From contig SCQK01000018.1 in NCBI GenBank assembly GCA_004321885.1, forward strand, positions 1 to 2,633: DNA of 2,633 nt, given 5' to 3'. The notes beneath the pieces were generated by a model. That model searched no databases and was not told the DNA's origin. It worked only from the letters and a program-made list of their open reading frames with translations. Every line of letters starts with the position of its first letter. Position 1 is the stretch's first letter. This document shows positions 1 through 2,633 of the stretch, piece after piece. A program made the translations under genes and the position numbers. The stretch is from Patescibacteria group bacterium. GTDB taxonomy: Bacteria; Patescibacteriota; Patescibacteriia; Magasanikbacterales; GWA2-37-8.

Positions 1-825
1 TATCAATACAAACTGACTGTGTCGCCCGGCAGAAACGGTCTGACTCCAAGCGCCACCCTCTACTACAACAATCAAACGGCAGACGACGTAAACTGGTTCG
101 GCTACGGCTGGAACTTGGATATTCCGTACATTGAGCGTCTCAATCGCACCGGCTCCGACAATCTATATTCTTCAACTTATTTTACCTCTTCCTTTGACGG
201 GGAACTTGCCACAACCTCTACTACAACTACGGCTTACGGAGCGAAGTACGAAAATGGGGCGTTCAGGGCATATACCTTTTCTAGTAATACGTGGCTTGTA
301 ACAGACAAAAGCGGGACACAATACAAATTCGGCTACTCCACTAGCACAAGAATGGATGATCCATCTGATGGAACGAAGATCTATCGCTGGATGCTTGAGG
401 AAGTGCGAGACAGAAATGATAACTACATAAAATACGAGTATTACAAAGGAGCAGGATACATTTACCCCTCAAAAATCAAATACACCGGCAACGGAGTAAC
501 AGACGGTATCTTCGAGCTTGAATTCTTCCGCCAGAATCGCGGCGCTGCCGGCTACGCCACCTCAAGCCGGCCCGCCTTTGAAGTTGTTACCAAGTATTTC
601 ATAAACGAAGTGCAAGCCAAAGTTAACGGTTCTTGGGTTAGAAAATACACCTTCAATTCTGCCTTGGCTGAAAACGGAGAAAGAAAACTGCTGGGAGGCA
701 TTGTGGAAACTGGCAAGGATGATTTGGGGACGGAAATCACTCTTCCGCAGACCTCCTTTACTTATGGAAATACCTTGACTGCTAATGGGTGGGATCCGAA
801 TCCTGCCGCCTCCGGCACCATTCCG
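1..825 (+). other. SpvB / TcdB-toxin N-terminal-type region. Only part of the domain is present because the window begins inside it.
   Basis: The conserved motif NWFGYGWNLDIPYIER lies at nt ~91-138. The following region KIKYTGNGVTDGIFELEFFRQNRG ... KYTFNS ... LPQTSFTYGN resembles the conserved segment between the SpvB N-domain and the propeller in TcB proteins. Boundaries are approximate and come from recalled family architecture, not from a search. Confidence 0.6.
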
Positions 826-2633
826 ATGTGGTTTATCAAGGACGGAACCTCGCGCACCGACAAAGGTTTGCGTATGGCAGACGTAAATGGGGACGCGCTC
901 GCCGATTTCATTTGGTCAGAGCTCGAAGGTTCTGCATCCTCTACTCAAAAAATTTATCTCAATAATAGAGGCAACCTCACTTGGAGTTACGATTCAAGCT
1001 GGCAATTCCCAGTGCACTTTGTGAAAGATGGGAAAGACGATGGCGTGAGACTTGCAGACGTAAACGGGGATCTTCTCATCGATGTTCTCTGGGCAATTGA
1101 TGCAGGCAGTGGTTCGACTACAAAGAAAACATATTTAAACACTGGCTCTGGTTGGTCTGAAAGTTCAACGTGGCAGCCGCCGGAATACTTTATTGCCGCC
1201 GAGAAAGACAATGGGGTTCGTTTAGGTGATGTAAACGGCGATGGCCTCGTAGATATTCTCTATTCTCATGCGACCAGCACCCAGCAATTCAACAAAATAT
1301 ATATGAATAACGGCGCCGGTTGGACGGAATCAGCCAGCTGGAAAAACCCCATGTCCTTTGCCACGGATGGGATAACCGATGATATTCAGCTTTTGGATGT
1401 CAATGCAGACGGGCTTTATGATTTTCTCACTTCCACTACAACTCACATGAATACAGGCAATGGCTGGAAAAGCCAGACTGGCTACACCGCATCGGTTTCC
1501 ATGAGAGTGCGTTATGCCGATGTCAACGGCGACAACTTGACGGATATGATTTCCTCCTACGTCTATAACGGTAATCCGCCGCTTACCCTCCGCGGCACTT
1601 CTAAAAATACCGGGAAACAGTGGGTAGAGATAACCGATCCTTCTTGGGACCCGCCCGTAGACTTTGCAAATGGTTTTGATCAAGACGAGGGGGTGCGCAT
1701 GGCCGATGTTGACGGGGATGCCATACCCGATATCTTGCAGTCGATATACTGGAGTGCCAACTCAACGCAAAATACTATTCGTCTCGCCAATCCTTCGCGA
1801 ACGGATCAACTAATAAAAATTGTTACAGATAAAGGAGCCACTCACGATATTACCTACAAACAAACTCCGCTGTATACAGCATCCGGAGGAAACCTTCTTA
1901 ATCCCAAGCTTCCGATTATTCTTGACACAGTTTCCCAAATCACCAAGAGCAACGGAGTCAACAATACTGAAGCAGTTAGCTACACCTATTCCGATGGGCG
2001 ATTCTATTTCAACACTGGCCGTGACAGACGTCTAGCTGGATTTGCCAGTACCACGAGGAGTAACGATGCTGGAACCAAAGTTAAAACATATTACCACCAA
2101 GGAAACACCACAGATTCATCTCTCGGCGAATTTAGTGATCACGTCTCGAAAATCGGTAAAACCTATAGGACTGAAATCACTGACGCGTCGAACAACATCT
2201 ACTCTAAAAAGATTAACAAGTGGGAGAATGTCGGGTTAGCGAACGATCGCCACTATGTAAAGCTTACGCAGACTATTGACTGGGCGCAGGACGGTGATGC
2301 TGATTCCAAACACAAGGCCGAAAGCTATGTCTATGACGACAGCGCCGGCAATCTCTCTCAAAAGACTCTCTGGGGTGAAGTAACTGCAAGCGATGACGGG
2401 ACATTTACAGATGCGGGCACAGACAAGTTCACCTTTAACTACACCTACGCCACAAGCTCCGCCACCAGCTCCGTTTCAGTGAATCTCCTGTCCCAAGAGG
2501 GAATGTTTGACCAGAGCTCAAATAAAGTCAAAGAAACAAAGCTCTATTACGACACCCTCTCTTACGGCAATGTCGATAAAGGAAATCTTACCAAGCAGGA
2601 ACTCTGGAAAACTGGCTCGGCTTACGCCTCATC
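1..2633 (+). CDS. Internal fragment, partial at both ends, of a large Tc-toxin B-subunit-like (TcB/TcaC/SpvB-family) RHS-repeat protein. Frame +1 is open across the whole window.
   Basis: Manual translation of frame 1 gives 877 codons without a stop. Three motifs support the call. The SpvB N-domain signature LYYNNQTADDVNWFGYGWNLDIPYIERLNR compares with TcdB2 ...NSPFGLGW.... There are six repeats of the R-[LM]-ADVNGD-x-L-x-D ... YLN-x-G-x-GW type. The downstream YD/RHS motifs are GRDRRLAGF, YVYDDSAGNL and LYYDTLSYGNVDKGNL. The order SpvB-N, then beta-propeller, then RHS matches TcB-family architecture. The window has no in-frame start or stop, so the gene is longer than the window. Confidence 0.9.
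826..1800 (+). repeat. Six tandem FG-GAP-like beta-propeller blades, a protein-level repeat with a period of roughly 55-60 aa. This is the putative TcA-docking or gate propeller of a TcB subunit.
   Basis: The blade core motifs are as follows. ADVNGDALAD (877-906). ADVNGDLLID (1054-1083). GDVNGDGLVD (1225-1254). DVNADGLYD (1396-1422). ADVNGDNLTD (1516-1545). ADVDGDAIPD (1702-1731). Each is followed by a [ST]-rich stretch and a Y[LM]N-x-G-x-GW or N-x-G-x-W hairpin and is preceded by D-x-G-[VL]-R. Spacing between blades is about 171-186 nt, except that blade 4 to blade 5 is shorter. Confidence 0.75.
1801..2633 (+). other. Beginning of the RHS/YD-repeat shell. It continues past the window end.
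   Basis: YTYSDGRFYFNTGRDRRLAGFASTTRSND (1981-2067) has the R-x-x-x-G-F element typical of RHS shell strands. The YD repeats are YVYDDSAGNLSQKTLWGEV (2326-~2382) and LYYDTLSYGNVDKGNLTKQELW (2542-2607). The composition is a Thr/Ser/Asn/Tyr-rich beta-strand pattern. Confidence 0.65.

Follow-up and report, generated by a model that had tools for sequence, protein, structure and literature searches.

The contig SCQK01000018.1, from a genome assembly assigned to a Patescibacteria group bacterium, is occupied by part of one gene, and the question it raises is what kind of protein that gene encodes; we refer to the whole stretch of 2,633 bp as the window. An initial annotation, made from the letters alone, had placed the window wholly inside a giant TcB/SpvB-family RHS toxin gene, without deciding between a Tc toxin proper, in which a TcB subunit acts together with TcA and TcC, and an RHS toxin that is independent of TcA. 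The comparisons described below suggest that the window is probably an internal fragment of a polymorphic toxin of the RHS 'cocoon' type, exported by Sec and independent of TcA, from a bacterium of the Patescibacteria (candidate phyla radiation, CPR).

The window was found to be the entire contig record, so it could not be extended in either direction and the genetic context had to be drawn from relatives. Both ends of the gene lie outside it, as had been claimed, and the encoded protein is recorded as EPN28_04885, 'hypothetical protein, partial' (protein P0001 in our set, 100% identity). Frame +1 contained no stop in 877 codons, again in agreement with the initial annotation, and the remaining five frames carried 18-56 stops each. 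Given the base composition, the chance of an 877-codon open frame is about 1e-20, and the longest competing open reading frame (ORF) in the window had at most 117 amino acids (aa). The GC content was even (44-49%), and searches of the window for tRNAs, Rfam families and tandem repeats found none.

Pfam searches with the window protein gave matches to SpvB (1.5e-13), FG-GAP_3 (6.6e-13, in four stretches), FG-GAP (1.1e-6) and TcdB_toxin_midN (PF12256; 1.5e-13, aa 564-696), and NCBIfam yielded nothing further above its cut-offs. Of the families whose models the initial annotation had proposed for searching, SpvB and TcdB_toxin_midN were found, but RHS_repeat was not, at E<=0.1. The start of the window coincides with the conserved opening of the SpvB domain, 'Y.Y...PPGRNGL'. 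Six loops of the integrin type that binds Ca2+, with the form D-x-[DN]-x-[DN]-x-x-x-D, one per blade, begin at aa 294, 353, 410, 466, 507 and 569, and six blade-like strand groups were visible in the AlphaFold2 (AF2) model described below; the SpvB N-terminal region and the six-blade propeller that had been proposed were both recovered in this way. The features of the window are as follows.

1-2633, + strand: partial coding sequence, frame 1, 877 codons plus 2 nt, cut by the contig at both ends; aligns to residues 156-1032 of the closest relative, P0121.
1-795, + strand: SpvB-like region at the N-terminal side of the shell, covering aa 1 to ~265 (Pfam SpvB 1.5e-13; target-normalised TM-score, TMt, 0.64 to the SpvB-N structure 6P0X; alignments A1 and A2).
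808-1800, + strand: six-blade FG-GAP or integrin-like beta-propeller, aa ~270-600 (Pfam FG-GAP_3 and FG-GAP; secondary structure of the model; integrin alpha matches of the family profile).
880-906, + strand: Ca2+-type loop of blade 1, DVNGDALAD (motif scan, as for the five loops below).
1057-1083, + strand: Ca2+-type loop of blade 2, DVNGDLLID.
1228-1254, + strand: Ca2+-type loop of blade 3, DVNGDGLVD.
1396-1422, + strand: Ca2+-type loop of blade 4, DVNADGLYD.
1519-1545, + strand: Ca2+-type loop of blade 5, DVNGDNLTD.
1705-1731, + strand: Ca2+-type loop of blade 6, DVDGDAIPD.
1690-2088, + strand: TcdB_toxin_midN region, aa 564-696, returning from the propeller into the shell (Pfam PF12256, 1.5e-13).
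2089-2633, + strand: first tyrosine-aspartate (YD) shell beta-hairpins, aa 697-877 (superpose on the TcB shell; no Pfam RHS_repeat match).
2326-2352, + strand: the sole canonical YD motif, YVYDDSAGN, aa 776-784 (motif scan and alignments).
2581-2601, + strand: conserved motif GNLTKQE, aa 861-867 (alignments), 10 codons before the contig end.

The claim that an RHS region starts within the window stood in part. It agrees with the single YD motif, in which Y778, G783 and N784 were invariant or nearly so among relatives, and with long beta-hairpins at aa 642-876 of the AF2 model, which superposed on the TcB shell, but the Pfam RHS_repeat model did not detect it. The canonical RHS repeats of relatives begin just beyond the position equivalent to the end of the window. 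All of the residues that are invariant across relatives were preserved in the window protein. The Ca2+ loops were intact in all six blades of the window, with a median of six in a set of 136 relatives (defined below), compared with none in SepB, a genuine TcB protein. The six retained loops fit an extracellular, Ca2+-stabilised propeller, as judged from the motifs. In an inspection of alignments the corresponding loops of TcdB1 also looked degenerate.

The AF2 model, built from a 31-sequence alignment, had a mean predicted local distance difference test score (pLDDT) of 88.6 and a predicted TM-score (pTM) of 0.88. When it was compared with the PDB using Foldseek, TcB subunits ranked first (TcdB1, 6L7I; TcdB2 in 6H6E and 6SUF; YenB, 9C4K and 4IGL), with E values from 4e-38 to 1e-28 and query-normalised TM-scores (TMq) of 0.67-0.74 over the whole fragment. 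Rhs shells of the type VI secretion system (T6SS) gave weaker E values and TMq of 0.12-0.18, teneurins gave weaker E values and TMq of about 0.1 (0.09 at the lowest), and the SpvB N-terminal domain structure 6P0X matched the beginning of the model. The same picture emerged when PDB sequences were searched with a profile of the family, with TcdB1 at 5e-45, TcdB2-TccC3 at ~1e-42, YenB at 1e-39 and SpvB-N at 1.5e-11; T6SS Rhs proteins were reached at ~1e-11, through the YD repeats only. A single-sequence phmmer search of the PDB with the window protein gave no match, so that kinship to the solved TcB proteins is distant (~14% structure-based identity). Assignment to the TcB/SpvB family of RHS toxin genes was thus upheld by Pfam, by profile search and by fold, and in the model the SpvB start, propeller, TcdB-mid region and YD hairpins, taken together, have the fold of the first ~900 residues of TcB subunits.

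An exhaustive HMMER search over 1.84 billion cluster representatives matched 5,946 representative clusters at E<=1e-3, of which 1,404 remained at the stricter cut-off of E<=1e-30. The best 150 of the 5,946, after removal of the window protein itself and of proteins that a first homologue search had found, make up the set of 136 relatives. Their median length was 2,411 aa, and 121 of the 136 had at least 1,900 aa; together with the closest relative, these lengths agree with the description of the gene as giant. That first homologue search had listed proteins only up to ~1,500 aa, so that split and partial forms were over-represented in it, and an initial reading of the gene as TcB-sized was dropped when the exhaustive search showed that fused proteins of ~2,400 aa dominate. 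A single-protein search of genome contigs found no relative; the smaller alignment A2 then recovered relatives in GTDB genomes. Proteins and loci obtained in these searches carry P and L numbers, respectively.

The closest relative, P0121, has 60% identity to the window protein and is encoded by a single gene of 2,522 aa. It begins with a signal peptide (MKNHILSRFGRRARDFSRRLTVLLLVFSFFIQPVATYA/QA) and a Pro/Thr/Ser-rich linker, followed in order by SpvB (151-307), the FG-GAP propeller, RHS repeats and the RHS-associated core (Rhs_assc_core, TIGR03696; 2237-2334), after which comes a tip of ~190 aa without a known domain. On its 51-kb contig (L095), a 119-aa ORF of family DUF7674 (12938-13297) begins 5 nt past the stop codon, and the upstream genes encode a Bro-N protein and a large serine recombinase, with no TcA. 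A second DUF7674 ORF was seen at the edge of a cassette array at another locus (L002, 1-293), and DUF7674 may be a family of immunity proteins.

Single fused genes also predominated among GTDB representatives, as in a member of the Saccharibacteria (L010, 2,435 aa) and at L011 and L012, with the core ~180-290 aa from the C-terminus. Split forms were a minority: 1,493 + 906 aa, the two genes overlapping by 4 nt and the core lying at 636-733 (L001), 1,497 + 802 aa, found unchanged in both of two assemblies (L003/L004), 1,177 + 856 aa (L008), and further B/C pairs at L019 and L034. In split relatives the end of the B gene coincides with that of TcdB1, since positions 1142-1227 of the 1253-position profile align to residues 1382-1472 of the 1,476 in TcdB1. 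In all of the complete relatives examined the RHS-associated core was kept and was followed by a variable tip of ~170-290 aa and then by small ORFs. From these alignments the window is expected to correspond to about residues 150-1030 of a protein of ~2,400-2,500 aa; a B-type gene of ~1,450-1,500 aa, accompanied by a C gene of its own, is less likely.

The loci of relatives also carried hallmarks of polymorphic toxins. Upstream of the B-like gene of L002, on an 886-kb contig, lies an array (4294-8032) of short genes, each with an RHS-associated core and a different tip, one of which is Ntox28; small ORFs are interleaved, one with HEAT repeats, and in its gene content the array has the typical appearance of a series of orphan toxin/immunity cassettes. 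An Ntox21 gene was present at L009, and small ORFs lay downstream of every C end examined. The orphan core and toxin cassettes (Ntox28) and the small downstream ORFs give these the look of interbacterial polymorphic toxin/immunity loci.

To decide between a Tc toxin proper and a TcA-independent toxin, we used the sep region of the Serratia entomophila plasmid pADAP as a control locus, in which a holin-holin-lysozyme cassette is followed by SepA (TcA, 2,371 aa), SepB (1,428 aa) and SepC (973 aa). Signal peptides were scored by a hydropathy heuristic. N-termini resembling signal peptides were found in 25 of 30 relatives, in 110 of the 129 Met-starting members of the 136-relative set, in the closest relative P0121 and at seven of the nine top GTDB loci, but in neither SepB nor SepC by the same heuristic. 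A phmmer search with SepA against 5,751 ORFs of 91 fetched loci gave no match, compared with 20 loci for SepB and 14 for SepC. TcA-type Pfam families (VRP1, TcA_TcB_BD, neuraminidase-like) were absent from the precomputed annotation of 15 relatives' neighbourhoods (13 with DNA, namely L001-L009, L090, L091, L094 and L095, and two gene lists without DNA), and no second ORF of >1,200 aa adjoined the match in any of 25 GTDB loci. Large upstream ORFs of GTDB relatives were considered as split TcA genes and rejected, as they encoded a UvrD helicase, a penicillin-binding protein or proteins without a domain. No holin/endolysin cassette of the pADAP type was present in the precomputed annotations of the relatives' flanks. 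Between the two possibilities, the evidence from relatives favours the TcA-independent one, because of their signal peptides, the lack of TcA in their flanks and the fused B-C genes that are the rule among them.

This architecture is that of the 'TcdB/TcaC' polymorphic toxin class of Zhang, de Souza, Anantharaman, Iyer and Aravind (2012, Biol Direct 7:18; PMC3482391), which is defined by an N-terminus combining a signal peptide, SpvB and an integrin-like beta-propeller, with RHS repeats, a variable C-terminal toxin and an immunity gene after it. The window shares with that class the SpvB region and the propeller, together with a probable RHS start as judged by fold and a single YD motif, and its relatives supply the signal peptide, core and tip. 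The lineages listed for the class comprise many bacterial phyla and the Euryarchaeota, with Patescibacteria/CPR not among them (PMC3482391), and our literature search found no paper tying Tc, RHS or polymorphic toxins of this class to Patescibacteria/CPR. The gene is thus a further member of a class described in 2012, in a lineage not highlighted before.

The TcB-TcC cocoons of known structure or sequence (TcdB2-TccC3, 4O9X and 6H6E; TcdB1, 6L7I; YenB-YenC, 4IGL and 9C4K; SepB-SepC of pADAP) have the same domain order and fold, and some relatives are, like them, split into B and C genes near the TcB/TcC junction. They differ in their low identity, given above, in the Sec signal peptide and linker that relatives have and SepB does not, in the six Ca2+ loops that SepB lacks, and in their loci, since the relatives' flanks contain neither TcA nor a lysis cassette and the relatives are mostly single fused genes. 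The T6SS Rhs effectors (RhsA, 7Q97; Tre23, 7PQ5; Tse5, 8CP6; Tse15, 8UXT) have in common with this family the YD-repeat shell, RHS-associated core and C-terminal toxin, but the similarity runs through the YD repeats only, as the profile and TMq values show. Domain searches found no PAAR or VgrG domain in the window or its relatives, and the window has neither a PAAR/VgrG-binding N-terminus nor an N-terminal plug of the T6SS type. Teneurins and the bacterial teneurin-like protein (6FB3, 9IFO) likewise combine an extracellular YD shell with a beta-propeller, but theirs is an NHL-type propeller with an FN-plug whereas that of the window is of FG-GAP type. WapA of Bacillus subtilis, a bacterium with a single membrane, is a large Sec-dependent RHS toxin of contact-dependent inhibition; it bears a signal peptide, its C-terminus is a polymorphic toxin, and an immunity gene lies downstream. 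It is not known to have an SpvB-propeller N-terminal module; by analogy it would be the best functional counterpart for delivery without a T6SS or TcA.

If the fragment belongs to such a toxin, the missing upstream part would, as in relatives, consist of a signal peptide and a Pro/Thr/Ser-rich linker, and the missing downstream part of the remaining YD shell, the RHS-associated core, a variable tip of ~170-290 aa and a small immunity gene. The protein would be exported by Sec across a single membrane and fold extracellularly into a closed shell, with the propeller plugging one end. The RHS-associated core would act as an aspartyl autoprotease that cuts off the tip, and the cleaved toxin would be kept inside the shell until a target cell is met. 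The likely targets would be neighbouring prokaryotes, either competitors or a host cell, from whose fate the producer would be shielded by the cognate immunity protein.

Several points weigh against this interpretation. The signal peptide, RHS core, tip, immunity gene and neighbours were all extrapolated from relatives with at most 60% identity, the toxicity, export and immunity functions of the clade are predictions from sequence, and the window protein itself gave no Pfam RHS_repeat match at E<=0.1. The search for TcA reached at most 10 kb into the relatives' flanks, and a tcA gene can sit elsewhere in the genome; moreover, SepA as the lone query has low sensitivity at such divergence, SepB itself having detected only 20 of ~90 loci. 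The taxonomic label depends on the binning of a 2.6-kb contig and on the CPR names of the best-named matches, and genes of similar type are present in many phyla and in archaea.

The archaeal relatives had 26-31% identity (L017, L019, L020, L028 and L033, with the match from 10001 onward in most), and their hosts were a Methanosarcinales metagenome-assembled genome, the complete genome of Methanimicrococcus stummii, a member of the Woesearchaeota and archaeon GW2011_AR15. Signal-peptide-like N-termini were seen in at least L019 and L020, the latter being a fused gene of 2,725 aa. Some relatives carried additional modules: a Laminin_G_3 (concanavalin-like lectin) module lies in the middle of the YD shell of L010 (aa 1530-1683, locus ~14177-14638), another opens the C-like gene of L003 (10959-13367, N-terminal aa 76-254), and at the P0013 locus a 1,047-aa fn3 protein (5686-8829) is encoded between the B-like and C-like genes. 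These Laminin_G_3 and fn3 modules may be target-binding additions to a cocoon that has no TcA. Other relatives were shorter or differently built. Many proteins of ~500-570 aa (for example P0068, P0077, P0082 and P0059), on very large contigs of up to 2 Mb, span only the first 50-56% of the window, covering SpvB and part of the propeller, and in L014 (Uhrbacteria) a DNRLRE domain (aa 1870-2046, locus ~5697-6230) occupies the place where others have the YD shell; the contig ends there.

The position at which the window stops was shared by other sequences. Exactly 10 codons separate the GNLTKQE motif (GN.TK.E across relatives) from the end of the contig, and L005 (8978-9028) and L006 (3552-3602) end at the same +10 offset, the L005/L006 gene being only ~45% identical to the window. 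In L091 (9417-9530) homology stops 3 codons past the motif and is followed by a tyrosine integrase on the opposite strand, L094 (~7270-7340) has a frameshift 3-5 codons past it, and L090 (~12900-12990) has one 0-1 codon past it, in a contig that is error-ridden throughout, with HSP70 and GrpE fragmented too. A frameshift at or near the position matching the window end was also present in L009. No shared nucleotide motif was found at the break-points. A jump in conservation immediately beyond the window was rejected as the cause of the clustering, since conservation rises only mildly (from ~0.33 to 0.40-0.53) with no sharp step, and the ends of P0037, P0004 and P0051 were rejected as real gene boundaries because the genes continue in other frames. 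The clustered breaks are most likely due to branching of the assembly graph where a boundary of recombination or paralogy lies.

Recombinase genes were seen beside several of the relatives. Large serine recombinases (Resolvase + Recombinase + Zn_ribbon_recom) adjoin three CPR loci, and a tyrosine integrase adjoins a fourth relative's gene:

L001, 3898-5229, - strand: large serine recombinase.
L009, 18096-19793, - strand: large serine recombinase.
L095, 237-1622, - strand: large serine recombinase.
L091, 9337-10509, - strand: tyrosine integrase.

The toxin gene of L003 lies amid relaxase, TrwB-like, ParE and AlpA genes (4977-5879; 20509-20945), and the toxin genes seem often to be carried on mobile elements. 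A bolder proposal, which we regard as doubtful, is that the cocoons deliver effectors from single-membrane CPR/DPANN-type episymbionts into the host cell, that the propeller, with or without Laminin_G, replaces TcA, and that the break at the 3' end of the window is a recombination junction at the level of the population. The constant N-terminal half would then possibly be joined to interchangeable shell-plus-toxin halves, with the serine or tyrosine recombinases as the driver, and the Ca2+-loaded, integrin-like propeller could serve as a docking and gating element.

CPR bacteria have an episymbiotic lifestyle, and the protein might accordingly be a non-toxic surface scaffold or adhesin, in which a teneurin-like YD shell, empty or holding a non-toxic ligand, and an integrin-like propeller serve in attachment to the host. 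The integrin-type propeller with intact Ca2+ loops, the lectin modules or fn3 partner of some relatives and their Sec-type signals would all suit such a role. We nonetheless consider it improbable, as the complete relatives examined all keep the autoprotease core, the variable tip and the small downstream ORFs, the cassettes that accompany them include identifiable toxin domains (Ntox28, Ntox21), and teneurins fit the model poorly (TMq ~0.1).

A further explanation is that the window is a dead remnant, either a copy that is truncated or in decay or the constant half that survived a rearrangement, from which no functional toxin is expressed. Disruption of relatives near the position of the window end (the integrase junction in L091 and the frameshifts in L094, L090 and L009) is consistent with this, but the frameshifted relatives come from error-prone assemblies, and the window retains 877 stop-free codons and every residue that is invariant among relatives, which makes decay very improbable.

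Least credible is a TcB subunit or TcB-TcC fusion of a three-component Tc (ABC) toxin with TcA encoded elsewhere, release by lysis and a eukaryotic target: TcB subunits are the nearest solved structures by both profile and fold, the B gene of split relatives ends where TcdB1 does, tcA may lie far from tcB/tcC and TcC genes are also known as orphans (PMC7861908), but TcA was missing from the fetched flanks by Pfam annotation, ORF size and SepA search, relatives have the signal peptides that SepB lacks, the annotated flanks hold no holin/endolysin cassette like that ahead of sepA, the Ca2+ loops are intact (6/6, against none in SepB), the nuclease-type cassettes and immunity-like ORFs suggest prokaryotic targets, and in the survey of Tc toxins by Song et al. 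(2021), which required adjacency to tcA or tcB, TcC was 96% from Proteobacteria and 3% from Firmicutes (PMC7861908).

By itself the window is of small significance: the toxin scaffold is very common, its family is large and has been on record since 2012, and this copy is incomplete, lacking the variable, informative parts. What the relatives indicate is of modest wider interest. TcB-like cocoons are abundant in Patescibacteria and present in archaea, with export signals and without TcA in the flanks that were searched. The Tc 'cocoon' would thus appear to be a general extracellular toxin container, of which the insecticidal ABC complex may be one specialised use.

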